Position numbers and translations under genes: made by a program. Positions 736 to 54,538 of a stretch of 64,000 bases of DNA are shown piece after piece; positions within the stretch are counted from its first letter, which is position 1, and every line of letters begins with the position of its first letter. The notes under the pieces were generated by a model. That model had not been told where the DNA came from and did no database searches. It worked only from the letters and a program-made list of their open reading frames with translations. The stretch comes from Betaproteobacteria bacterium (GTDB taxonomy: Bacteria; Pseudomonadota; Gammaproteobacteria; Burkholderiales; SG8-39), in assembly GCA_016195915.1 (NCBI GenBank), contig JACPYS010000028.1, positions 132,542 through 196,541 of the forward strand. Direction: 5' to 3'.

Positions 736-1908
736 ATGGCAGTGATCGAACCCATCGCCCGCCTGCAGGAAGAAATGACGCGCTGGCGGCGCGACATCCA
801 CGCCCATCCCGAACTCGGTTTCGAGGAAAACCGGACCTCGGGCGTGGTAGCGAAAAAACTGCGCGAGTTCGGGCTGGAAGTGCATCGCGGAATCGGCAAG
901 ACCGGCGTGGTGTGAGTGCTGCGTGCCGGAAACGCAAGCCGCTCGGTCGGCCTGCGCGCCGATATGGACGCGTTGCCGATCCACGAAGCGAATACCTTCG
1001 CGCACCGCTCGACCAGCGACGGACGCATGCACGCCTGCGGGCATGACGGCCACACCACGATGCTGCTCGGGGCGGCGAAATATCTTTCCGACACGCGAGG
1101 TTTCGACGGGGTTGTGAACTTCATTTTTCAGCCAGCCGATGAAGGCATCGGCGGGGCGCGCGCGATGATCGAAGACGGACTGTTCGAGAAGTTTCCCTGC
1201 CAAGCGGTGTTCGGCATGCACAACCGGCCGGGCTTGCCGCTCGGCAAGTTTGCGGTGCGCGCCGGACCGATGATGGCGGGCGGCGGATTTTTCGATATCC
1301 GCGTTACCGGCAAAGGCTCGCATGGCGCGCGGCCCGAGGCCGGCATCGATTCGGTGCTTGTCGCCTCGCACATCGCCATCGCCCTGCAAAGCATCGTCTC
1401 GCGCAACGTGCGGCCGGTGGACGCGGCCGTGGTCTCGGTGACCAAGATCCACGGGGGCGATGCTTACAACGTCATTCCACAGACCGCACAGCTCTCCGGC
1501 ACGGTGCGCGCATTCACACGCGATGTGATGGAGTTGATCGAAACCGGGATGCGCCGGGTCGTCAAGGGGACCGCGGAGGCGTTCGGTGCTGCCGCGGATG
1601 TCGATTTCCGCGTGATCTTCGCCCCGACGGTCAACGACGCGGTGCAGGCCGAGTTCGTGGCGGGCGTTTGCGACGAGATAGTGGGCGACGACAACGTGAA
1701 CCGCAATCCGTCGCTGATCGTCGCCTCGGAGGATTTCTCCTTCATGCTGGAGAAAGTGCCGGGCTGCTACTTCAACATCGGCAACGGCGCGGGCGAAGGC
1801 GCCTGCGAGGTGCACAACCCGGCCTACGATTTCAACGACGCTGCGCTCGCGCTCGGCGCCAGCGTATTCGCGCGCATCGTCGAAAAGCGTCTGGCGAAAA
1901 CCGGCTGA
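736..1908 (+). pseudogene. M20-family amidohydrolase (hippurate hydrolase/aminoacylase-like) with a single in-frame TGA at 913-915
   Basis: ATG at 736 follows GGAGAA. ORFs 643-915 and 916-1908 are in the same frame and read through as ...GIGKTGVV*VLRAG..GLRADMDALPI..ACGHDGH. This is continuous M20 homology across the stop. Confidence 0.8.
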
Positions 1909-1958
1909 GCCCGCCATTTCCGGGAACGCCGGATTTCCGTCGCTGCACGCGACCGGGC

Positions 1959-3068
1959 CTAAAACCTGACCACGCTGCGGATCGATTCGCCGGAATGCAT
2001 CAGGCCGAAGCCCTGGTTGATGTCCTCGAGCGGCATCACGTGCGTAATCAGGTCGTCGATGTTGATTCTGCCGTCCATGTACCAATCGACGATTTTCGGC
2101 ACGTCGGTGCGTCCCCGCGCGCCGCCGAAGGCCGTGCCTTTCCAGACGCGCCCGGTGACGAGTTGAAACGGCCGGGTCCTGATCTCCTGCCCGGCGCCGG
2201 CGACGCCGATGATGACCGAAACCCCCCAGCCGCGGTGGCAGCATTCGAGCGCCTGGCGCATCACCTCGACATTGCCGATGCACTCGAAGCTGTAGTCCGC
2301 GCCGCCGCCGGTCAGTTCGACCAGATGCGCGACTAGGTTGTCGCCCACCTCCTTCGGGTCGACGAAATGCGTCATGCCGAATTTTGCCGCCAATGCGCGG
2401 CGTGCCTGATTCAGATCGACGCCGATGATCATGTTCGCACCGGCCAGACGCGCGCCCTGCACCACGTTGAGGCCGATGCCGCCCAGGCCGAACACCACCA
2501 CGTTCGCGCCCGGCTCGACCTTGGCGGTATTGATGACAGCGCCGATTCCGGTGGTGACGCCGCAGCCGATGCAGCAGACCTTGTCGAACGGCGCATCCTC
2601 GCGGATCTTCGCCAGAGCGATCTCGGGCAGGACCGTGAAGTTTGCGAAGGTCGAGCAGCCCATGTAGTGATGGATCTTCTTCCCGCCGATCGAAAAGCGC
2701 GATGTGCCGTCGGGCATCACGCCCTTGCCCTGCGTGCCGCGGATCGCGGTGCACAGGTTGGTCTTGCGCGACAGGCAGGATTTGCACTGGCGGCATTCGG
2801 GCGTGTAGAGCGGAATCACGTGGTCGCCCTTGCTGAGCGAGGTCACACCGGAACCGACATCGACCACGATCCCGGCGCCTTCATGGCCGAAGATCGCCGG
2901 AAACAGGCCTTCCGGATCCGCGCCGGAGCGCGTGAATTCGTCGGTGTGGCAGATGCCGCTCGCCTTGATCTCGACCAGCACCTCGCCGGTTTTGGGCCCT
3001 TCGAGCTGCACCGTTTCGACCACCAGCGGTTTGCCGGCCTCGTAGGACACGGCGGCGCGTACATCCAT
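1959..3068 (-). CDS. adhC: S-(hydroxymethyl)glutathione dehydrogenase / class III alcohol dehydrogenase
   Basis: End-to-end similarity to FrmA/AdhC (GICHTDEFT, GHEGAGIV, HYMGCSTF, VTGRVWKGTAFGG, SIRSVVRF). Start placed at MDVRAAV rather than the upstream ATG of the ORF. Confidence 0.93.
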   Translation of the reverse strand: MDVRAAVSYEAGKPLVVETVQLEGPKTGEVLVEIKASGICHTDEFTRSGADPEGLFPAIFGHEGAGIVVDVGSGVTSLSKGDHVIPLYTPECRQCKSCLSRKTNLCTAIRGTQGKGVMPDGTSRFSIGGKKIHHYMGCSTFANFTVLPEIALAKIREDAPFDKVCCIGCGVTTGIGAVINTAKVEPGANVVVFGLGGIGLNVVQGARLAGANMIIGVDLNQARRALAAKFGMTHFVDPKEVGDNLVAHLVELTGGGADYSFECIGNVEVMRQALECCHRGWGVSVIIGVAGAGQEIRTRPFQLVTGRVWKGTAFGGARGRTDVPKIVDWYMDGRINIDDLITHVMPLEDINQGFGLMHSGESIRSVVRF

Positions 3069-3137
3069 GTGCGTTTCTCCGGAAAGTCGCGCCATCATAG
3101 CGCCCGCGGCTTCACGCCGTGTCGGAGCGGAAGCTGG

Positions 3138-4508
3138 TCAGGGACTGCGCAGATGCCAGGCCTTGGGACGCGTAAACGTCCTGATGCCGTCGATCGAGAG
3201 CGTCAGTCCAACCCCCGAATGTCCGACGCCCGACCACGGCAGCCGCGGGCTGACGCGGTCGCAGCAGTTCCAATACACCGAACCGGACCGGACACGCGCG
3301 AGCATGCCGCGCGCGCGCGCTTCATCCGGTGTGTACACGCCGGCGGTAAGGCCGTACTCCGTGTCGTTCATCAGCGCGACTGCCTCGTCATCGCCGTCGA
3401 CCCGCTGAATGCCGATCACCTGGCCGAAGGATTCCTCGCGCATCAGTTCCATCGAGTGGTCCACATCGGAGACAACCGTCGCGTCGAACCAGTTGCCCGC
3501 TCGCTGGATGCGCTTTCCGCCGATGAGGAGCTTCGCGCCCTTTGCGAGTGCGTCCGCCACCTGCCGCTCCAGTACCGCGACTTGCGGCGCGCGCGCAAGC
3601 GGGCCGAGATAGGTGGATTCGTCCATCGGATCGCCGACCTTGAAGCCCCTTACCGTGCCGGCGAATGCGGCCACGAAGGTGTCGTGAATCCTTTCGTGCA
3701 CGTAGATGCGCTCGACCGAGCAGCACGACTGCCCCGCGTTGTACATCGCGCCGTCGGCGAGCGACTCCGCGGCGCTCGCGATGTCGGCGTCTTCACACAC
3801 GTAAACCGGGTCCTTGCCGCCCAGTTCCAGCTGCAGCTTCACCATGCGCGGCGCGCAGGCAGTGGCTATCTTCACGCCGGTCGGATACGAGCCCGTGAAG
3901 AAGACTCCGTCGACGGGTTGTTCGACCACCGCGGCGCCCACGGCGCCGCCGCCGGGGACCACGTTGAACACGTCTGCCGGGACACCTGAGTCGCGCAGCA
4001 TCTCGCCGATCGCAAGGCCGGTCAGCGTGGCGAATTCGGAGGGTTTGTAGAGCACCGCGTTTCCGGCGATCAGCGCAGGGACGAACACGTTCGAACCTAC
4101 GAAATACGGATAGTTCCACGCCGAGACATTGGCGATGACCCCGAGCGGCTCGTGCGTGATGCGCTCGGCGAGTTTGTCCTGAGGGGCTTCCAGCACGCTC
4201 TCGGCAGCGAGCGCACCCTCCGAGTGGTCGAGAAAAAAATCGATGCGGCCGGCGAGCGCGTTCAATTCGTTGTGCGACTGGCGGATTGGTTTGCCCATCT
4301 CGCGGGTGAGCGTGCGTGCGAGTTCGTCGCTGCGCTCGGCGACGCGCGCCTTGAAGCTGCGCAGCGCCGCGACGCGCTCGGCGATCGGCCGCGCAGCCCA
4401 GGCGGGTTGAGCGGCGCGCGCGGCGGCGTACTTTGCCGCGATCGTTTCCGCAGCGTCATCGGGCAGCTCGCGCAGCAGCGAGCCGTCGGCGGGGTTGACG
4501 ATCTTCAT
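3138..4508 (-). CDS. NAD(P)-dependent aldehyde dehydrogenase
   Basis: ALDH family motifs (LELGGKDP, catalytic-Cys region GQSCCSVERIYV, EESFGQV). Start MKIVNP overlaps the stop of the upstream gene (ATGA at 4505-4508). Confidence 0.9.
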   Translation of the reverse strand: MKIVNPADGSLLRELPDDAAETIAAKYAAARAAQPAWAARPIAERVAALRSFKARVAERSDELARTLTREMGKPIRQSHNELNALAGRIDFFLDHSEGALAAESVLEAPQDKLAERITHEPLGVIANVSAWNYPYFVGSNVFVPALIAGNAVLYKPSEFATLTGLAIGEMLRDSGVPADVFNVVPGGGAVGAAVVEQPVDGVFFTGSYPTGVKIATACAPRMVKLQLELGGKDPVYVCEDADIASAAESLADGAMYNAGQSCCSVERIYVHERIHDTFVAAFAGTVRGFKVGDPMDESTYLGPLARAPQVAVLERQVADALAKGAKLLIGGKRIQRAGNWFDATVVSDVDHSMELMREESFGQVIGIQRVDGDDEAVALMNDTEYGLTAGVYTPDEARARGMLARVRSGSVYWNCCDRVSPRLPWSGVGHSGVGLTLSIDGIRTFTRPKAWHLRSP

Positions 4509-5626
4509 AGCGCAGCGGCGAACAGTTGCTCGAAGTCCTGCCTGGCGCAAGGTCGTGGATTGGTCTGGTGGCAGATGTCCTTCAGCGCAATATCGACCAG
4601 GCGCGGCAGGTGCCCGGCGTTCACGTCAAGCTCGGAGAGTTTCGCCGGAATGCCGAGTTCGGCCTTCAGCCGTGTGAGCCATTCGATGAAATCCGGCACG
4701 CCGGCCACGCGCGCAAGCTCGTCCATCTTCGTCGCCGCCGCGCTGCGGTTGAAGCGCATCACGTGGTCGATCATCACGCCGTTGGCGAGGCCGTGGTGCA
4801 GGTCATTGACGGTCGAGAGCGCGTGGGCGCAGGAGTGCACGGCGCCGAGGTCTTTCTGGAACGCGATCGCACCCATCATGGAGGCCATCAGCATGTCGCT
4901 GCGCGCGGCGAGATCCCTGCCGTCGGCGAACGCCCGCGGCAGCGCGCGGGCGGCGATCCTCACGCCTTCGAGCGCGATGCCGTCGCACAGCGGGTGGTAA
5001 GCGGGTGAAAGATAGGACTCGACGTTGTGCGTGAGCGCGTCCATCCCGGTCGCGGCGGTGATGCCGCGCGGCAGATCCAGGGTGAGTTCCGGATCTGCGA
5101 ACACCGCTTTCGCGAGCAGCGCGGGAGAGAACACGATGCGCTTGACATGCGTGTCGTCCTCGGAGATCACGCTCGAGCGGCCGACTTCGCTGCCGGTGCC
5201 GGCGGTGGTGGGAAGCGCGACGAAGTGCGGCAGCGGCCTGTCGATCGGACGCACCTGCGGATGATCCCAGGCGTATTCGAGCACGTTGCCAGGGTGCACC
5301 GCCATCAACGCAACCGCTTTAGCCACGTCGAGCGCTGCGCCACCGCCGAAGCCGATCACGCAGTCGGCGCGGTGCGCGCGATACGCTGCGACACCCGCGT
5401 CCACCTGGCTCTTCACCGGGTTGCCGTGTACGCCTGCGTAGACCTCGGGCGCGAGTTCGGCGAGGCGCGACTCGAACTCCGCGAGCATCGGCAGCGCGGC
5501 GATGCCGCTGTCGGTGACGATGATCGGTCGCCGCAGGCAGTGCGCCTGAAGTTCCTGGGCGACGAGCTTGCGCGAGCCGGGGCCGAAGTGAATCGTGGTG
5601 GGAAACGCGAAACGATGGATCGTCAT
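4505..5626 (-). CDS. Iron-containing (group III) alcohol dehydrogenase
   Basis: Fe-ADH family similarity (GFGGGAALDVAKA, metal-binding His region HSCAHAL..HHGLANG). Start at MTIHRF is likely, but 5644 is possible. Confidence 0.88.
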   Translation of the reverse strand: MTIHRFAFPTTIHFGPGSRKLVAQELQAHCLRRPIIVTDSGIAALPMLAEFESRLAELAPEVYAGVHGNPVKSQVDAGVAAYRAHRADCVIGFGGGAALDVAKAVALMAVHPGNVLEYAWDHPQVRPIDRPLPHFVALPTTAGTGSEVGRSSVISEDDTHVKRIVFSPALLAKAVFADPELTLDLPRGITAATGMDALTHNVESYLSPAYHPLCDGIALEGVRIAARALPRAFADGRDLAARSDMLMASMMGAIAFQKDLGAVHSCAHALSTVNDLHHGLANGVMIDHVMRFNRSAAATKMDELARVAGVPDFIEWLTRLKAELGIPAKLSELDVNAGHLPRLVDIALKDICHQTNPRPCARQDFEQLFAAAL

Positions 5627-47407: not shown

Positions 47408-49243
47408 ATGCCGGAGCTGTTCTTCAAGGGAAAAGAGTACGTCTATAACCATCACCTCACGGTCCCCTACCGCCCGCTCATCGCCGATCCGGAGAAGTCC
47501 ATCGGCCCCGCCGACCTGGCGGGCAATCTCATCATCCACGGCGACAACCTGCATGCGCTGAAAAGTCTGCTGCCGCGCTACGCCGGCAAGGTCGATCTGA
47601 TTTTCATCGACCCGCCGTACAACACCGGCAACGAAAGCTGGTCCTACAACGACAACGTCAACTCGCCCATCATGCGCGAGTGGCTGAGGTCCAATCCCGT
47701 CAACGTCGAAGACATGCTGCGGCACGACAAGTGGCTGTGCATGATGTGGCCGCGGCTGACGCTGTTGCGCGAGTTGCTGTCGGACCGCGGAAGTCTATGG
47801 ATAACATTGGACGACAACGAAGTGCATCGGGCGCGCAGCGTGATCGATGAAATATTTGGTGCCGAGGCGTTTATTGCGTCTGTGATTTGGCAGAAGAATT
47901 TTTCTCCCAAAAATACCGCACAGTTTTTCTCCGAAGATCACGACTATGTACTTGTCGTTGCCAAGAACCGGGATCTCTGGCGTCCAAATCTGCTTGAGCG
48001 AACTGCTCGGATGGAGGCGAGATATTCCAATCCCGACAATGATTCACGTGGCGCCTGGACTTCTGGTGACCTATCTGCGCGAAATTACTACAGCGAAGGA
48101 ATTTATTCGGTCACGTGTCCGGGCGGACGGGTAATCGATGGGCCTCCGCCAGGAACGTTCTGGCGCGTCTCGAAAAAGAAATTCGATGCGCTTGATCGTG
48201 ACAAGAGAATCTGGTGGGGTGAAGATCAAAATAACATGCCGCGCCTTAAGCGATTCTTAGAGAACGTAAAGCAAGGCCGTGTACCTCAGACTTTGTGGTT
48301 TTACGAAGATGTAGGTCACACGCAAGACGCCAAGAAAACTCTCTTAGAAATTGGGGTGCTGAAATCGCAAGAGGATGCGACGATGACCCCCAAGCCGGTC
48401 GCTTTGATAGAAAAGGTGATTGAGCTTGGAACGCAGCCCGATTCCTTGGTCCTGGACTCATTCGCCGGTTCCGGCACGACAGGTCATGCGGTATTGCGCG
48501 CCAATTCAAATGACAGCGGCTCGCGCCGATTTATTCTCGTCGAAAGCGAAGACTACGCCGACCGTATCACCGCCGAGCGTGTACGTCGCGTGATCAACGG
48601 CTACGCCTACGTCGGCACGCAGCGCGAGGAGCTGCTGCGCGACAAAGTGACCTGGAGCAAGCTGCAGAAGTCGGCCGACCTGCTCGAGCAAGTAGAGGCG
48701 ATCAAACAGCGCGAGGGCTTTTCCGATCGCCCGGACCTGGCGCAGGTGCCGCCGGAGAAGCGGCGCTTCGACAAGGTCAACGTCAAGATGGACGATGGAG
48801 TTTTGCTGGTCGAAGGGGAAAAGAAGATTTCGAAACGCGTCGAGGGATTGGGCGGGGAATTCACTTACTGCACGCTGGGCGAGCCGATCGACGCGGAGAA
48901 AATCCTGTCGGGCGAACAACTGCCGGACTACTCCAGCCTCGCTGCCTGGCTGTTCTATACCGCGACCGGAGCCACGCTGGACAAATCACGAGTGAAGGAG
49001 AAGGAGTTCTTCATCGGCAGGGCGCAGGATCGCCACGTGTGGCTGATCTACAAGCCCGATCTGGTATTCCTGAAATCCCCCGAGGCGGCGCTTACGCTGT
49101 CCTTCGCCAAGGGACTGCGCGCAAAGCACAAGGACCGGCGGCACCTGGTGTTCGCTCCGGCCAAGTACCTCTCCAACAAGCAGTTGCTCGAATTCGGCGT
49201 CGAGTTCGCGCCCTTGCCGTTCGTACTGTACCGGGAGGCTTGA
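47408..49243 (+). CDS. mod: Type III restriction-modification DNA methyltransferase (Mod, beta-class N6A/N4C)
   Basis: Motif IV DPPY (47609-47620) precedes motif I FAGSG (48461-48475), which is the beta-class order. 611 aa. A res-type gene lies downstream. Confidence 0.9.
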   Translation: MPELFFKGKEYVYNHHLTVPYRPLIADPEKSIGPADLAGNLIIHGDNLHALKSLLPRYAGKVDLIFIDPPYNTGNESWSYNDNVNSPIMREWLRSNPVNVEDMLRHDKWLCMMWPRLTLLRELLSDRGSLWITLDDNEVHRARSVIDEIFGAEAFIASVIWQKNFSPKNTAQFFSEDHDYVLVVAKNRDLWRPNLLERTARMEARYSNPDNDSRGAWTSGDLSARNYYSEGIYSVTCPGGRVIDGPPPGTFWRVSKKKFDALDRDKRIWWGEDQNNMPRLKRFLENVKQGRVPQTLWFYEDVGHTQDAKKTLLEIGVLKSQEDATMTPKPVALIEKVIELGTQPDSLVLDSFAGSGTTGHAVLRANSNDSGSRRFILVESEDYADRITAERVRRVINGYAYVGTQREELLRDKVTWSKLQKSADLLEQVEAIKQREGFSDRPDLAQVPPEKRRFDKVNVKMDDGVLLVEGEKKISKRVEGLGGEFTYCTLGEPIDAEKILSGEQLPDYSSLAAWLFYTATGATLDKSRVKEKEFFIGRAQDRHVWLIYKPDLVFLKSPEAALTLSFAKGLRAKHKDRRHLVFAPAKYLSNKQLLEFGVEFAPLPFVLYREA

Positions 49244-49245
49244 TC

Positions 49246-49635
49246 ATGTCGCGTGCACGCTTCGAGTTGGCGCGAACACAGTTTGACCAGGCGCTGGCGC
49301 GCCTCTCCGAAGCACTGCGGGAGAATGAGACGTCGTTCATGCGCGACGCTGTTATTCAGCGCTTCGAGTTCACCTACGAACTGGGCTGGAAGTGCATGTT
49401 CTATTGGCTGCGGGATAACGGAGAAAAGATTCCGGAGATGGTGCGCCCGGTGATTCAGGCGGCGTTCCGTGTGGGGCTGATCGGCGACGTCGATCTCTGG
49501 GAAAAAATCAAGGACTGTCGCGATGAAACCAGCCATACCTACGACGAGGCGAAAGCAATCGAAGTTGCGGCCTTCATAAGGCGCGACGCCGAAAGCGCTT
49601 TCGGGGCGCTCAGAACTAAACTCGGAACCTTGTAA
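49246..49635 (+). CDS. HEPN-domain protein, HI0074 / nucleotidyltransferase substrate-binding family (HepT-like toxin candidate)
   Basis: IQRFEFTYELGWK and the Rx4H motif RDETSH (49519-49536) followed by TYDE. GGGAGG lies 7 nt upstream. The ATG is 2 nt after the mod stop. Confidence 0.85.
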   Translation: MSRARFELARTQFDQALARLSEALRENETSFMRDAVIQRFEFTYELGWKCMFYWLRDNGEKIPEMVRPVIQAAFRVGLIGDVDLWEKIKDCRDETSHTYDEAKAIEVAAFIRRDAESAFGALRTKLGTL

Positions 49636-52589
49636 TGTCGCCGATGGCAGCGAAGAACGACGCGAATCCGTTTGGCATTGCGCCTTATTCTGCCGCGAAG
49701 CTGACACGGTTGTTCGAGTGCTTGCCGGGAATCGATCGAGTCTGGATCTACGGGTCCCGCGCACGCGGCGACCATCGCGAGGAATCGGACATCGATCTCG
49801 CCGTCGAGGCCGCCTCCGAAGAGGCGTACAGCGGCGCGTGGCGCGCAGTGGAAGCGCTGGAACTGGTCTATAGGGTGGATCTGGTTCATCTTCAGCGCGT
49901 GAGCGACACGGGATTTCGCTCGCGCATCGATCAGGACAAGAAGGTATTCTGGGAGCCGCGCAGCTATGCCACCGACGTGGCGGGGCTGGCCGGCACCGAG
50001 TTGAAACAGTTCCAGCGCGAAGTGCTGGCACAACTGGCTCGATACATTGAAGAGCTCGAGAAGCAGCGCGGCCAGGCGGAGAGAGCGGCGGAGGCATTGC
50101 GGGCGGCGGAGGTGGACGCGGACAAGGAGATGCTCGATTTCGCGCGCAAAACCTGGGATGCGATGCGGGAGCGTAAGCAGCTTCCACCGACTTTCGCCGG
50201 CCGGACTTATTCCAGCCGTTTTGACCCTGCGGCGCGGCCCATTCCCAACGTGTGCCTGAAGGTGCCGACGGGCGGGGGCAAGACATTGCTCGCGGCAGCC
50301 GCGGTCGCCCGCATGTTTTCGAGCTATTTCCGCCGCCATACGGGACTGGTTCTCTGGATCGTACCGAACGAGGCCATCTTCAGCCAGACGAAACGCACGC
50401 TGAACGACCGCGACCATCCGTACCGGCAAATGCTCAATGTGGCGGGCGCCGGGCGGGTCAAGATACTGGAAAAGGATTCGCCGCTTTCGCGGGCAGACGT
50501 GGAGTCGCACCTGTGCGTCATGCTCCTGATGCTTCAATCGGCGTCGCGCCAGTCGAAGGAAACGCTGCGCTTCTTCCGCGATCGCGGCAGCGTGCACGGG
50601 TTCTTCCCGCGCGAGGACGACCTCGACGCGCACTACCGGTTGCTGGGCGAAATTCCCAACCTCGACATCTATGGCGCCGATCCGCGTCTGAAAGGCGCGA
50701 TCGTCAAGGATTCACTCGGAAACGTGATGCGCCTGGTGCGCCCCATGGTGATCATCGACGAGGGCCATCATGCCTATACCGAAACGGCGTTGAAGACCAT
50801 CGACGGCTTCAATCCCTCCCTGGTACTGGAGCTGTCTGCGACGCCCCGCGTCGGAAAGAAAGGGGAACATGGCGCGAACATCCTCGTGGACGTTCGCGGC
50901 ACCGACCTGGAACGCGCGGAAATGATCAAGCTCCCGATCAACGTCGAAGCGCGCCCCTGGAACGATTGGCAAAGCTGCCTGAACGCCAGCGTTTCCAAGC
51001 TGGACGAACTAGGGAAAGCAGCGCATCTCCTCGAAGCCGATACCGCGCGCTATATCCGGCCGATCCTGCTGGTGCAAGTCGAGCGAACCGGCGCAGACCA
51101 GCACGACAGCGGGTTCATTCATGCCGACGATGCGCGCAATCATTTGCTGCAATTGGGATTCCACGCGGATGAGATCGCCATCAAGACAGCGGACAGGGAT
51201 GAGCTCAAGCAAGTTGAAAACATCAATTTGCTTTCCCCGGCCAACCGCGTGCGCGCGATCGTGACCAAGCAGGCGCTCTCGGAGGGGTGGGACTGCCCTT
51301 TCGCGTACGTGCTGTGTGCGCTCTCTGCGGGCCGTAATCCCGCGGCATTGACCCAATTGATCGGCCGGATTCTGCGGCAGCCCGATGTCGCGAAAACGGG
51401 CCGCAGTGCGCTCGACGAATGCTACGTGTTTTGTCACGACATCCAGACCGGCGCGGTGGTGACCCTTATCAAGTCGGGACTGGAGCAGGACGGTTTGGGC
51501 GATCTTGCCATCAGCGTCCGCTCCGGCAACGGAGAGGCCCCGAACGCGAATCTGCGCAAAGTGGAGCGCAACCCGAAGTTCGGCAAGCTGCGCATCTTCC
51601 TGCCGCGGGTGACCTGGAACGATGGCGGCATGCGGCGGGAACTCGCTTATGACAGCGATATCCTGGCGAAAGTACCCTGGCAGGCAATGGATGCGGCGGC
51701 GCTGGCAAATGACTGGGCGCCCGACTCGGCACCGGCCGGACAGCAGCGCCTGCGCATCGGGCTTGAGGTATTGGCGGGCGTCAGTCCGATTCTTCCACCT
51801 GATGAGGACAGCATTTCCGCGTCGCTCGACCGGGTTTCGATGGTGCGCGCCGTTCTCGATCTCGTGCCCAATGCATGGATCGTCTGGCAACTGATAGAGA
51901 CGACCGTCAGGCGGCTCCAGAGGATAGGGTTTGCGGAGCAAGCCATAGCGCGCTCATCCAACAGCCTGATCGAACGTCTGAGGAGCGATCTGGAGCGGGA
52001 ACGCGACCGCTTGGCAGAGCAGGTATTTACCGAGTTGGTTGAAGCGGGCAGGGTGGCGTTTTCCCTGCGCGCGGACGCCGCCGACTACGAGTTGCCGTCC
52101 TCGCTCGAAATCAACGTATCCGATTCGCCGCGCAACGCGCAGCGCCCGGACGGCCAGCCTATCGATAAGAGTCTTTTTCAGCCGTGCTTCGAGGCAATAT
52201 TCGACAATCGACTGGAACTCGATGTCGCCTGCTATCTCGACAGCCAGGCGGCGCTCACTTGGTGGCACCGCAACGTTGCCAAAACCCAATACGGCCTGCA
52301 AGGGTGGAAAAGAAACAAGATCTATCCGGACTTCGTTTTCGCGAAAATGGAGGGCGAAGGGATGGCGAAAATCGTGGTGCTGGAGACCAAGGGACTGCAC
52401 CTCAAGAACGAGGATTCGGCCTATAAGAAGGCGTTGCTCGATCGTTTGACTGAAATCTATATGGAAGGCAGCGGCATTCGAGTGGGTGAACTCGCGCTCG
52501 AAGGCACGAGCCGGCAGCAGGTGATTTGCGATCTTGTGTTCGACGATGCATGGCGAGGCGCGATTTCCAGCCGGCATTTTTCGTCATGA
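49635..52589 (+). CDS. res: Fusion protein: minimal nucleotidyltransferase (MNT, HI0073-like) domain plus Type III restriction enzyme Res subunit (SF2 ATPase plus PD-(D/E)xK nuclease)
   Basis: YGSRARGDHREESDIDL (GS..DxD, 49752-49796). Walker A VPTGGGKT (50262-50285). DEGH (50757-50768). LELSATP. SEGWDCPF. QLIGRILRQ. C-terminal YPDF..VVLETKG (52326-52391). A single uninterrupted 984-codon ORF whose ATG overlaps the HEPN TAA. Confidence 0.88.
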   Translation: MSPMAAKNDANPFGIAPYSAAKLTRLFECLPGIDRVWIYGSRARGDHREESDIDLAVEAASEEAYSGAWRAVEALELVYRVDLVHLQRVSDTGFRSRIDQDKKVFWEPRSYATDVAGLAGTELKQFQREVLAQLARYIEELEKQRGQAERAAEALRAAEVDADKEMLDFARKTWDAMRERKQLPPTFAGRTYSSRFDPAARPIPNVCLKVPTGGGKTLLAAAAVARMFSSYFRRHTGLVLWIVPNEAIFSQTKRTLNDRDHPYRQMLNVAGAGRVKILEKDSPLSRADVESHLCVMLLMLQSASRQSKETLRFFRDRGSVHGFFPREDDLDAHYRLLGEIPNLDIYGADPRLKGAIVKDSLGNVMRLVRPMVIIDEGHHAYTETALKTIDGFNPSLVLELSATPRVGKKGEHGANILVDVRGTDLERAEMIKLPINVEARPWNDWQSCLNASVSKLDELGKAAHLLEADTARYIRPILLVQVERTGADQHDSGFIHADDARNHLLQLGFHADEIAIKTADRDELKQVENINLLSPANRVRAIVTKQALSEGWDCPFAYVLCALSAGRNPAALTQLIGRILRQPDVAKTGRSALDECYVFCHDIQTGAVVTLIKSGLEQDGLGDLAISVRSGNGEAPNANLRKVERNPKFGKLRIFLPRVTWNDGGMRRELAYDSDILAKVPWQAMDAAALANDWAPDSAPAGQQRLRIGLEVLAGVSPILPPDEDSISASLDRVSMVRAVLDLVPNAWIVWQLIETTVRRLQRIGFAEQAIARSSNSLIERLRSDLERERDRLAEQVFTELVEAGRVAFSLRADAADYELPSSLEINVSDSPRNAQRPDGQPIDKSLFQPCFEAIFDNRLELDVACYLDSQAALTWWHRNVAKTQYGLQGWKRNKIYPDFVFAKMEGEGMAKIVVLETKGLHLKNEDSAYKKALLDRLTEIYMEGSGIRVGELALEGTSRQQVICDLVFDDAWRGAISSRHFSS

Positions 52590-52803
52590 CTACGGTTGTC
52601 CCGGCGGCCATCCTCGAAGCGATGCAAACGGTAGCGAAATGATACCTTTTAGGCTCGAAGCATCAACTCTTCTTGCCCTGCGCTGTTATGCCACCGTCAC
52701 TTCTTTCGCCAGATACACATCCTGAACCGCATTGAGCAGCGCAACGGGCCGACCCGATCCGACAGCATTTGCTTTCCCATCAACACATCAGTATCGTTGT
52801 GTT

Positions 52804-53244
52804 ATGATTCCTGCGTTCAGTGCCGAAACGGGCAATCTCCCGCCGGGGGAACATCCCGCCACATGGGAAGAAATCGTGGAGCGGTTCGGCTACACCGCGT
52901 GGCGCAGTAAGTTGCTCGACGGGCTGAAGGCCGCCTTGGAGTCCCTGCGCGCAGCGGGTTGTAAGAAGATCTACCTCGATGGAAGCTTTGTTACTGCGCA
53001 GGAGAGGCCCGGCGACTTTGACGCCTGCTGGGTAGGGGAGGGCGTCAACGGCGACCTTCTCGACGAGGAACTCCTCGTATTCGACGGCGGGCGAGCAACG
53101 CAAAAAGAAAAATATGGGGGCGAGTTATTCGTTGCGGAGTGGGCAGCCGATGAGACCGGCACTCCCTTCCGAACGTTCTTCCAGCAAGACCGGGATGGGA
53201 ATCCCAAAGGCATCATCACTATCGACTTGACGGAGCTGCCATGA
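52804..53244 (+). CDS. Small NTase-fold protein (I recall this as DUF6932-like), toxin candidate
   Basis: MIPAFSAETGNLPPGEHPATWEEIVERFG ... YLDGSFVTAQERPGDFDACW has a GS-x9-DxD signature at 52981-53022. Start placed at ATG 52804. Confidence 0.7.
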   Translation: MIPAFSAETGNLPPGEHPATWEEIVERFGYTAWRSKLLDGLKAALESLRAAGCKKIYLDGSFVTAQERPGDFDACWVGEGVNGDLLDEELLVFDGGRATQKEKYGGELFVAEWAADETGTPFRTFFQQDRDGNPKGIITIDLTELP

Positions 53245-53669
53245 TCACTAACGAGCGCCAGTATGCGATTACGAAGGCGCAAGCGGAGCGCTTCAAAGAG
53301 GCGCTCGCGAAGCCCGATGAACAAGGAAAGAAGCTGCACCCTAAGGTACGGAAGGCGATGAGCGAGGGATTACAGAGCCAACTCCAGGACCTGGAAACGG
53401 AAATCGCTGAATTTGAAAAACTGCGCGACGGGAAAGTCACGACCATCGTGGTGAATTCGATCGTTGACATCGCCGTAGCGCTCATTCAGTCGCGTATCGC
53501 GCGCAACTGGACGCAGAAACAACTCGGCGAGAGGCTCAATCTTCCGGAACAGCAAATCCAGCGCTACGAGAGCACTCGCTACAAGGGGGTGGCCGTGGAG
53601 CGTCTCCAGGAAGTGGCCGATGCGCTGAATGTTCGCGTGCAAGAGGTGGTTACAATCGAACAGCGGTAA
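53241..53669 (+). CDS. XRE-family helix-turn-helix protein (HigA-like antitoxin candidate)
   Basis: The C-terminal HTH is IQSRIARNWTQKQLGERLNLPEQQIQRYESTRY. The ATG overlaps the upstream stop (ATGA). Confidence 0.8.
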   Translation: MITNERQYAITKAQAERFKEALAKPDEQGKKLHPKVRKAMSEGLQSQLQDLETEIAEFEKLRDGKVTTIVVNSIVDIAVALIQSRIARNWTQKQLGERLNLPEQQIQRYESTRYKGVAVERLQEVADALNVRVQEVVTIEQR

Positions 53670-53709
53670 ACCTGGGGACTTGAGAGCAGGCGTCAGCGGA
53701 GATTTTCCG

Positions 53710-54538
53710 ATGTCGACCGAGACCACCCGCCGTGTAACGATCGATGACGAATACCGGGCTCGTACGCGAGCTTCGGCGAACCTCTACGCGGAAGCTTGCA
53801 CGGTGATTCCGGCAGGAATCACCCACGACTCGCGCTTCACGCTGCCTTATCCGATCTTCGTATCTCGCGCCGCAGGTCCCCGCAAGTGGGATGTCGACGG
53901 CAACGAGTACGTCGATTACTTCGGCGGCCACGGAGCATTGCTGCTCGGTCATTCGCACCCCGCCGTGGTCGAAGCGGTGCAGCGCCAGGCCGCACTCGGT
54001 ACGCACTGGGGCGCCTCGCACACACTCGAAGTGCGCTGGGCGCAGTTGGTGCAGCGCCTGATCCCCTCGGCTGAGCGGGTTCGCTTCACGGCCTCGGGGA
54101 CCGAAGCATCGCACCTGGCGTTGCGGCTCGCACGTGCGTACACCGGAAAACCGAAGATCCTGCGCTTCGTCGGCCACTTTCACGGCTGGCATGGCGAGGT
54201 CGTCGCGGGCGCGATGTCGCACTTCGATGGCTCGGTGCCCGCCGGCATTGCGCAGTCGCTGCTCGATCAGTCGATCGTGCTGCCGGCCGAAGATATTCCA
54301 CGCATCGACGAAACGCTGCACACGCGCGATGACATCGCCGCGGTCATCTTCGAGCCCTCGGGCGCATCGTGGGGCCAGGTACCGCTGCCGCCCGGCTTCG
54401 GGAGGTCACCAGGCAACAGGGCATGGTGCTGATTTTCGACGAGGTGATCACCGGCTTTCGATGGTCGCGCAGACGCTGGACGCATTTCGCACGGCGGTGA
54501 GAAGGCTGAAATCGGAGGGCGATATCCGGAACGCCTAG
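53710..54538 (+). pseudogene. Class III aminotransferase (glutamate-1-semialdehyde aminomutase-like) remnant
   Basis: The N-terminal 228 aa are intact (DVDGNEYVDYFGGHGALLLGH, FTASGTEA). Homology then continues in a second frame (LREVTRQQGMVLIFDEVITGFRWS) and jumps to the extreme C-terminus in a third frame (AQTLDAFRTAVRRLKSEGDIRNA*). This indicates one frameshift plus loss of roughly 150-200 codons. Confidence 0.75.

Follow-up and report, generated by a model that had tools for sequence, protein, structure and literature searches.

We describe a three-gene Type III restriction-modification (RM) cassette, mod-hepT-mntA::res, which probably has absorbed a type VII toxin-antitoxin module in such a way that the enzymatic antidote is tethered to the restriction subunit, Res; our confidence in this reading is moderate. 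The cassette lies in a 64,000-nucleotide (nt) stretch of DNA from Betaproteobacteria bacterium GCA_016195915.1 (contig JACPYS010000028.1, 132,542-196,541). This whole stretch is referred to below as the window, and all coordinates are positions within it. The cassette consists of a mod gene, a gene for a small HEPN protein, and a res gene whose product begins with a minimal nucleotidyltransferase (MNT) domain, and the three genes are co-directional, on the forward strand.

The first gene, mod (47408-49243), encodes a 611-residue (aa) Type III β-class N6-adenine DNA methyltransferase (Pfam N6_N4_Mtase 3.4e-37; PADLOC MTase_III PDLC03640 8.4e-196). Its motif IV, DPPY (47609-47620, aa 68-71), precedes its FxGxG motif I, FAGSG (48461-48475, aa 352-356), so that a β-class Mod lies upstream of res, as in Type III systems. 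Next comes the HEPN gene (49246-49635), whose 129-aa product, a predicted RNase toxin, belongs to the HI0074/NTase_sub_bind family (Pfam PF08780 2.2e-27; NCBIfam TIGR01987 1.3e-24). It contains RDETSHTY at 49519-49542, which is an RX4HXY motif formed by R92, H97, and Y99, and QRFEFTYE at 49357-49380. The third open reading frame (ORF; 49635-52589) encodes 984 aa. Its first 110 residues (49635-49964) form an MntA-like MNT domain (Pfam Polbeta 1.2e-12, NTP_transf_2 6.5e-8, at aa 22-106) with the motif GSX10DXD at 49752-49796, read as G40-S41-X10-D52-I-D54, and a third acidic residue, D82. A stretch at 49965-50234 follows, wherein the full-length AlphaFold2 (AF2) model places a low-confidence tether (aa 110-124) and a long helix at the N-terminus of the Res body (aa 125-158). 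This model was built on 16 sequences, had a predicted local distance difference test (pLDDT) score of 49, with aa 110-124 below 50, and was not used for fold search. The remainder of the Res body (50235-52589) combines a superfamily 2 (SF2) helicase and a C-terminal PD-(D/E)xK nuclease (Pfam ResIII 5.5e-14, aa 205-405; PADLOC REase_III PDLC03653 9.6e-200). Helicase and nuclease motifs were read at 50265-50285 (PTGGGKT), 50757-50768 (DEGH), 51354-51377 (QLIGRILR), 52326-52334 (PDF), and 52383-52391 (ETK), and their residues were invariant in the Res alignment. Since the REase_III model covers only aa 122-977, the MNT domain is an addition at the N-terminus of a complete Res.

The gene junctions are tight. 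At the mod/HEPN junction (49231-49248), a GGGAGG Shine-Dalgarno sequence lies within the last mod codons, after which come the TGA of mod, a gap of 2 nt, and the ATG of HEPN, the spacing from GGGAGG to this ATG being 7 nt in the raw sequence. At the HEPN/res junction (49632-49637, GTAATG), the HEPN TAA and the res ATG share one base, as expected for a termination-reinitiation junction. An earlier note, made from the letters of this DNA, had described the three ORFs, the HEPN ATG placed 2 nt past the mod stop, the TAATG overlap, and the DPPY, FAGSG, Walker A, DEGH, QxxGRxxR, and PD...ExK motifs. We reproduced each of them, and likewise RX4HXY and GSX10DXD, and the Pfam, NCBIfam, and PADLOC profiles, with matches well past chance level, bore out both the fusion of an MNT domain to a complete Res and the presence of a HEPN gene between mod and res. 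In databases, the proteins go under the names 'type III restriction enzyme', 'DEAD/DEAH box helicase family protein', and 'HI0074 family nucleotidyltransferase substrate-binding subunit'. No PADLOC-DB v2 model matches the HEPN protein, and current defence-annotation models appear to yield only 'RM type III' for the cassette.

HepT/MntA systems were defined by Yao et al. (PMC7641770) by a GSX10DXD motif in the antitoxin and a polyadenylylated tyrosine beside the RX4H RNase site of the toxin. Jin et al. (PMC11586414) reported the same chemistry for a Legionella pair, whose MNT has no long α4 helix and for which AMPylation of the partner was shown experimentally. Both signatures of a type VII pair were found here, that is, a HEPN protein with RX4HXY and a minimal nucleotidyltransferase with GSX10DXD. 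The HEPN protein scored 86.5 bits with the NCBIfam HI0074 model (TIGR01987), for a curated cutoff of 55.8, and matched by sequence the PDB entries 1wty (TTHA0048, 1e-17), 1jog (HI0074, 8e-12), and 8xdj (the Legionella HEPN toxin, 4e-11). In the 49 loci used for conservation and junction counts, R92 was conserved in 100% and H97 and Y99 in 98%, with a mean HEPN pairwise identity of only 45%. On the MNT side, G40, S41, D52, D54, and D82 were conserved in 100% of these loci, and G40, S41, D52, and D54 were invariant in 119 protein clusters. An AF2 model of aa 1-123, built on a 119-sequence alignment, had a pLDDT of 89.3. In a Foldseek search of the PDB with this model, the 19 best matches were all MNT antitoxins of HEPN-MNT systems: the closest was the Legionella MNT 8xeo (E 2e-8, TM 0.88, root mean square deviation 1.5 Å), and the next were S. 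oneidensis MntA, HI0073, and the A. flos-aquae MNT. The checks that the earlier note had called for thus gave a confirmed MNT fold, by AF2 and Foldseek, and a confirmed HEPN family, by sequence profiles. Together with co-occurrence and specific co-evolution (see below), the motifs and the matches to solved structures support its proposal of a type VII-like pair. We infer that HEPN and MNT constitute a HepT/MntA-like toxin-antitoxin pair; its toxicity, AMPylation, complex formation, and trigger are predictions drawn from sequence.

We compared this pair with the HepT/MntA systems of S. oneidensis (SO_3166/SO_3165), L. pneumophila (lpg2920/lpg2921), A. flos-aquae, and H. influenzae (HI0074/HI0073). 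With these, it shares a HI0074-family HEPN bearing RX4HXY and an MNT bearing GSX10DXD plus a third acidic residue. The resemblance to lpg2920/lpg2921 extends to the overlap between the two genes, to the MNT fold, which is closest to that of the α4-less Legionella MNT, and to the HEPN sequence match given above. In contrast, the antitoxin is a free protein of about 100-140 aa in those systems and the N-terminal domain of a 984-aa restriction subunit here. Moreover, those systems are two adjacent small genes, transcribed together, with MNT usually upstream, whereas here the toxin gene comes first and the pair sits between mod and res, chain-translated with them and known from its sequence.

The 49-locus alignment also separated two HEPN subtypes at window aa 30-48, one reading IQRFEFT[FY]E and the other LLLR[FY]V[FY]TFE, in which Q38 and E41 are replaced. 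Only E45, R33/D34, and RX4HXY were universal across both. Q38 and E41 may match the Q and E of the Mg2+ site of the Legionella HEPN, and the two subtypes may differ in catalytic mechanism.

The database name of the HEPN family recalls a different reading, that of the original HI0073/HI0074 proposal, according to which MNT and HEPN would be the two subunits of one nucleotidyltransferase that modifies Res, Mod, phage DNA or RNA ends, or a phage protein, and thereby regulates or extends restriction. As a matter of fact, Pfam, NCBIfam, and JGI still call this HEPN family a 'nucleotidyltransferase substrate-binding subunit', HEPN-like substrate-binding domains occur in kanamycin nucleotidyltransferase and in GlnD-type enzymes (PMC3710099), and the weaker fold matches of the MNT model included the ANT and AadA aminoglycoside nucleotidyltransferases. 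However, domesticated substrate-binding HEPNs typically lose their RNase residues, whereas RX4H and the Tyr are kept here in 98-100% of loci, and all close solved relatives of both partners are toxins or antitoxins with demonstrated HEPN AMPylation. We consider a two-subunit nucleotidyltransferase very improbable.

We then asked how widespread and how old the fusion is. One genome per GTDB species was scanned, the best 80 loci were retained, and two groups were delineated: a main clade, with upstream DNA present and Res at least 52% identical to the window Res (n = 48), and a sister clade, at 46-52% identity (n = 28). The mod-HEPN-MNT::res arrangement was found in 48/48 loci of the main clade, so a HEPN gene and an extra Res domain set every one of them apart from the two-gene, mod-plus-res organization. 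In the sister clade, which shows the simple two-gene organization, a fused MNT was found in 0/28 loci and a HI0074-type HEPN in 0/28, and the Res matches began at aa 114-130 of the window Res, mostly at 122-126. In this neighbourhood survey, of the kind that the earlier note had proposed, HEPN and fused MNT were jointly present in 48/48 and jointly absent in 28/28 loci. That note had named a stop or frameshift dividing MNT from Res as the finding that would undo its claim. The same readthrough product of 984 aa, with the same neighbours, was present in two independent assemblies (SRR12113411 and SRR12113413). Furthermore, among the best 120 protein clusters compared with the window Res (57-100% identity), 119 contained both the Polbeta and ResIII families (PF18765 and PF04851). 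The two assemblies, the 119/120 clusters, and the 48 species genomes rule out an assembly artefact or a frameshift between the two parts.

In a neighbour-joining tree of the Res body, the MNT-bearing Res formed one clade in 40/40 bootstraps, with core identities within the clade down to 54%. Monophyly across such deep divergence points to a single ancient capture and fusion of HEPN-MNT, retained ever since, as the simplest history suggested by the sequences. The clade comprises about 50 species-level genomes, mostly of freshwater and soil Burkholderiales and Xanthomonadales-like bacteria. Its hosts are mainly Burkholderiales (Rhodoferax, Polaromonas, Hydrogenophaga, Limnohabitans, Rubrivivax, Roseateles, and Ramlibacter), along with Dechloromonas, Luteimonas, Silanimonas, Rhodanobacteraceae, and Spectribacter. 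The neighbours of the cassette vary: here it is flanked by genes for a 2-hydroxyacid dehydrogenase and an aminotransferase, and elsewhere by pntB and hupE. In the window, its G+C content is 0.53-0.62 against about 0.65 in the flanks. Because its chromosomal contexts differ and its G+C is lower than that of its surroundings, the cassette behaves as a compact mobile unit. A search of the plasmid collection gave no DNA match to the HEPN-MNT junction and only protein matches at or below 42% identity, all without the MNT part. Hence the cassette does not count among the known plasmid-borne systems.

Stand-alone relatives of the MNT domain (P0121, P0122, and others) were 50-59% identical to it. On a short contig carrying one of them (L083/L084), no clear HEPN, mod, or res was seen nearby. 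An unfused intermediate of the same family could not be established, and no locus within the clade had the two parts split. The only unfused mod-HEPN-MNT-res found, L069, has a HEPN of a different family (PF05168).

Junctions like those in the window recur in most of the related loci. In about 39 of the 49, the HEPN stop and the Res start share 1 or 4 nt (ATGA, GTGA, TTGA, TAATG, or TGATG), and the distance from the mod stop to the HEPN start is 1-12 nt in most of them. A strong Shine-Dalgarno sequence, typically GGGAGG in the conserved final mod codons, precedes HEPN in 32/49 loci, but one precedes Res in only 7/49. A consensus scan for internal promoters or terminators between the genes gave nothing convincing. 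Most translation of Res would accordingly come from ribosomes that re-initiate after terminating on HEPN. As the Res start lies in the HEPN stop, mostly without a ribosome-binding site of its own, only ribosomes fresh from translating the toxin would go on to make the antidote. Toxin synthesis would then come first and at least equal that of the antidote, whose output is probably the lower of the two. Under such conditions, a catalytic antitoxin is better suited than a stoichiometric one.

Distances between proteins were then compared by a mirror-tree analysis of 48 full-length loci. HEPN distances correlated with MNT-domain distances (r = 0.465), and this held after removal of linker, helicase, and C-terminal distances (partial r = 0.454; permutation p ≤ 5e-4). 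In contrast, HEPN distances showed r = 0.006 with the helicase, 0.106 with the C-terminal region, and 0.096 with the linker, whereas parts of the Res body correlated with one another at r = 0.67-0.79. This pattern indicates that HEPN and MNT evolve as one module, probably exchanged, with a boundary at the MNT/linker junction; comparison of these sequences suggests that the module has been swapped among Res bodies. Columns tracking the HEPN subtype were concentrated in α1 and α2 of MNT (mean mutual information 0.14-0.19 vs 0.04 in the helicase), a weak signal from 48 related sequences. In solved complexes, α2 of MNT is the common HEPN-binding surface (PMC11586414).

Independent evolution of HEPN-MNT and the Res body is also what one would expect if a self-contained HEPN-MNT module had landed in the mod-res junction as a nested passenger, co-transcribed with its neighbours and functionally unlinked to them, the fusion being a tolerated accident due to a lost stop. 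Unrelated cargo sometimes occupies this junction in the sister clade (RhuM, DUF3800, DUF433 + DUF5615, RAYT, and an unfused HEPN + MNT + GIY-YIG set), and autonomous defence genes nested within Hma, BREX, DISARM, and Type I RM systems have been documented (bioRxiv 10.1101/2024.01.29.577857). A mere accident is harder to reconcile with the retention of the fusion in 48/48 loci whose Res cores have diverged to 54%, with no split version seen despite the apparent exchange of the module. Neither does it account for a Res translation chained to that of HEPN, as judged from the overlaps and from the scarcity of strong Shine-Dalgarno sequences before Res, nor for a HEPN and a fused MNT that are present or absent together with no exception. 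We regard a nested passenger as unlikely, yet as the strongest rival to the absorbed type VII module.

If HEPN and MNT do form a type VII pair, the cassette could operate as follows. The 129-aa HEPN protein would most likely act as an RNase toxin, and the Res-borne MNT would most likely AMPylate its Tyr99 beside the RX4H site; MNT may also keep HEPN bound to the restriction complex. The products of mod, HEPN, and MNT::res would be translated as a chain, HEPN from a strong ribosome-binding site of its own. An antidote built into Res would share the synthesis, abundance, and fate of the restriction subunit. Should the supply of functional, ATP-charged MNT::Res stop while HEPN is still made or is de-modified, the RNase would be freed. 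Phage shut-off, proteolysis, ATP depletion, and mutational loss of res are candidate triggers. The outcome would be an RNA-targeting, growth-arresting second layer of defence, or a lock against res loss. We infer in this sense a guard, abortive-infection, or addiction role, exerted if Res is lost or blocked. As HEPN distances show r about 0 with the Res body, tethering and shared fate are favoured over allosteric sensing, and the MNT-Res link looks like one of tethering and shared fate through the flexible segment aa 110-124.

Several observations weigh against this interpretation. On the MNT domain, the NCBIfam MntA_antitoxin model gave 8e-13 and 48 bits, which is below its curated cutoff of 60. 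The HEPN-first order reverses the order that Anantharaman et al. call almost universal for MNT-HEPN dyads. Two natural variants depart from the HEPN motif, H97R in L028 (RNLTSRTY) and Y99D in L035 (RNLTSHTD); these could be inactivated toxins, constitutive mimics of the modified state, or errors of metagenome-assembled genomes. The full-length AF2 model, poor at a pLDDT of 49, gives no guide to the placement of MNT relative to the Res body, and the missing co-evolution of HEPN + MNT with that body gives no support to the idea that the restriction machinery senses or gates the toxin. Unrelated cargo in the sister-clade junction means that nesting alone need not imply functional coupling. Finally, AMPylation is covalent, and already-modified HEPN would stay off after Res loss; release of the toxin would therefore need new HEPN synthesis, ATP shortage, or a de-AMPylase. 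On the L035 variant itself, we noticed that the predicted AMPylation site is replaced by an acidic residue.

The covalent character of the modification bears as well on the possibility that the cassette is primarily an addiction or stabilization device, which would make it, and especially res, hard to lose. The reason would be that Type III systems are intrinsically poor at post-segregational killing. Were res inactivated by frameshift, deletion, or phase variation, the antidote would be destroyed with it, and the cell would die or be arrested. Conservation is 100% for the MNT catalytic residues, no locus with an intact HEPN has a broken MNT or res, the sole decayed locus (L067) lost HEPN and MNT together, and a compact cassette of low G+C in varied chromosomal contexts is what one expects of a mobile element. 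Yet classical addiction needs a labile antitoxin, and here the antidote is as stable as the 984-aa enzyme that carries it. In cells losing the whole cassette, HEPN would be left inactivated by its covalent modification, so that the device would protect more effectively from mutations inside res than from loss of the locus as a whole. The pattern in its support comes, besides, from 49 loci and a single decayed example. A stable, covalently acting antitoxin is thus a poor fit to classical post-segregational killing, yet would penalize res-inactivating mutations. We consider addiction as the main function improbable and, like the two-subunit nucleotidyltransferase, less likely than the nested passenger.

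The decayed copy, L067, extends over 1848-5162 of its locus. Its mod is broken, and one ORF joins Mod at about aa 480 to Res at about aa 244. A single deletion took the 3' end of mod, HEPN, MNT, and the 5' end of res, including the Walker A region, and DEGH has become DKGH.

Returning to the absorbed type VII module, a further step would be to regard MNT::Res as defining a subtype of its own within Type III RM, with three components, in which the restriction subunit itself is the antitoxin. The toxin would be made first and in excess, silenced catalytically by the Res that the same ribosome makes next, and unleashed when the supply of functional ATP-charged Res stops or when Res is destroyed in infection. 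We put this forward tentatively, as a serious possibility that falls somewhat short of an even chance.

Coupling between HEPN proteins and RM was predicted by Makarova et al. in 2012 (PMC3506569) and Anantharaman et al. in 2013, and in Table 1 of the latter paper, MNT-associated HEPN families cluster with R-M operons. According to the comparative-genomics papers of 2012-13, immunity loci encode no typical antitoxins, and these papers hypothesized that immunity proteins themselves inhibit the toxins. More recently, a BREX survey (NAR 2026 gkag035) described HEPN, sometimes fused to MNT, as back-up effectors, and Payne et al. (2024 preprint, bioRxiv 10.1101/2024.01.29.577857) described genes embedded in defence systems under the term 'guilt-by-embedding'. 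A fusion between an MNT antitoxin and a restriction subunit did not turn up in the full-text literature searched, most subscription journals being outside its coverage. The novelty that the earlier note had claimed for this wiring therefore stands in part: the MNT::Res fusion appears undescribed, but HEPN-RM coupling had already been predicted, and the parts, namely Type III RM and type VII toxin-antitoxin, are known, so this is not a categorically new system.

One of the closest precedents is PrrC of EcoprrI, likewise a HEPN RNase encoded inside an RM operon (PMC3710099, PMC3632139), and the logic that we propose is the same: the restriction complex would silence the RNase, and the RNase would be a second line of defence. 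PrrC, however, is an ABC-ATPase-HEPN fusion of another HEPN family in a Type Ic hsd locus. It is silenced by non-covalent association with EcoprrI, with no dedicated antitoxin domain, and its trigger is T4 Stp. The present cassette is of Type III, and in place of an ABC-ATPase joined to a PrrC/RloC-type HEPN, it encodes a stand-alone 129-aa HI0074-type HEPN with no ATPase domain. With canonical Type III systems (EcoP15I and EcoP1I), it has in common the order mod then res, a β-class Mod, and a Res made of an SF2 helicase and a C-terminal PD-(D/E)xK nuclease. The Res of EcoP15I is a very remote relative (PDB 4zcf, E 0.002 over 50 aa; NCBIfam PRK15483, 20 bits vs a cutoff of 564), and the cassette differs from the canonical systems by the third gene and the extra N-terminal enzymatic domain of Res, its cleavage behaviour being a prediction. 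A HEPN gene on the same strand sits inside a DNA-targeting immunity operon, a feature shared with the HEPN 'back-up suicide effectors' described for RM, BREX, and BREX-related systems; here, however, the immunity protein itself carries a recognizable antitoxin domain fused to it. Reported HEPN fusions are to nucleases, helicases, and ATPases, whereas in our case the antitoxin is the fused part. FhepTA (NAR 2026 gkag228), which is regulated by oligoAMPylation, also has its MNT covalently joined to a larger polypeptide. There, MNT is joined to its own HEPN; here, it is joined to a third party, Res, and the toxin is separate.

A coupling of DNA-targeting immunity to suicide or dormancy toxins has been argued for since 2012, and its mechanism has stayed open except for PrrC, since the immunity loci had no recognizable antitoxins. 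The cassette offers a concrete, conserved case of such coupling. Its antitoxin is identifiable, enzymatic, and fused to Res, and the Tyr-AMP chemistry is established in free-standing relatives; the coupling question thus becomes directly testable in a three-gene system. If MNT::Res is indeed such a three-component subtype, it would embody the 2012 'immunity-suicide coupling' hypothesis in physical form, through a known chemistry, Tyr AMPylation, that lends itself to direct tracing. As the clade is modest in size, the impact would be conceptual and not based on prevalence.

Additional genes were seen at related loci. In L048 (4315-5540), a DUF6978 protein and a DUF1828/DUF1829 protein are encoded between mod and HEPN, and in L010 (4460-5362), an ORF resembling the L048 cargo occupies the same place. 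Upstream of HEPN, the MNT::Res cassette can therefore accommodate more cargo. In the sister clade, the mod-res junction contained RhuM (L053, 8e-115), DUF3800 (L054, L056, and L070), a DUF433 + DUF5615 PIN-like pair (L055), an IS200-like RAYT transposase (L058), or a 130-aa protein (L059). In L069 (4548-5788), it contained the unfused PF05168 HEPN, then MNT, then a GIY-YIG gene. This suggests that the mod-res junction is a recurrent landing pad and that 'guilt by embedding' extends to Type III systems.

Two further architectures involve related MNT domains. A Type I operon on a short contig (L085, 218-4510; JGI metagenome 3300035208) encodes HsdM, an NYN-domain protein (203 aa), an MNT::HsdS (490 aa) with MNT N-terminal to HsdS and GSX10DXD intact, and a PIN_12 protein (250 aa). 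This single instance hints that the same arrangement may also occur in Type I systems. P0177 (347 aa) has a related MNT domain and a C-terminal region with RNRLTH, which is Rx4H-like, and Cys-rich, zinc-ribbon-like motifs, Pfam detecting the MNT part only; it may be another single-chain MNT-HEPN-like architecture.

Directly downstream of res in the window (52732-53669, + strand) lie two overlapping genes, one for a DUF6932 protein (170 aa; Pfam 2.7e-40, PADLOC candidate PDC-M63A 5e-14) and one for an Xre-type helix-turn-helix (HTH) protein (142 aa; HTH_3 1e-9), within the same low-G+C island as the cassette. The DUF6932 sequence holds a GSx9DxD-like stretch, DGSFVTAQERPGDFDA, that resembles the pol-β nucleotidyltransferase motif, and the pair may be a second toxin-antitoxin or defence module. 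It was ruled out as a component of the cassette, being absent from all 80 other loci. The island is bordered at 53629-54432 (+ strand) by a class-III aminotransferase ORF of 267 aa, which we take to be short for this family and which may have been truncated or frameshifted beside the insertion.

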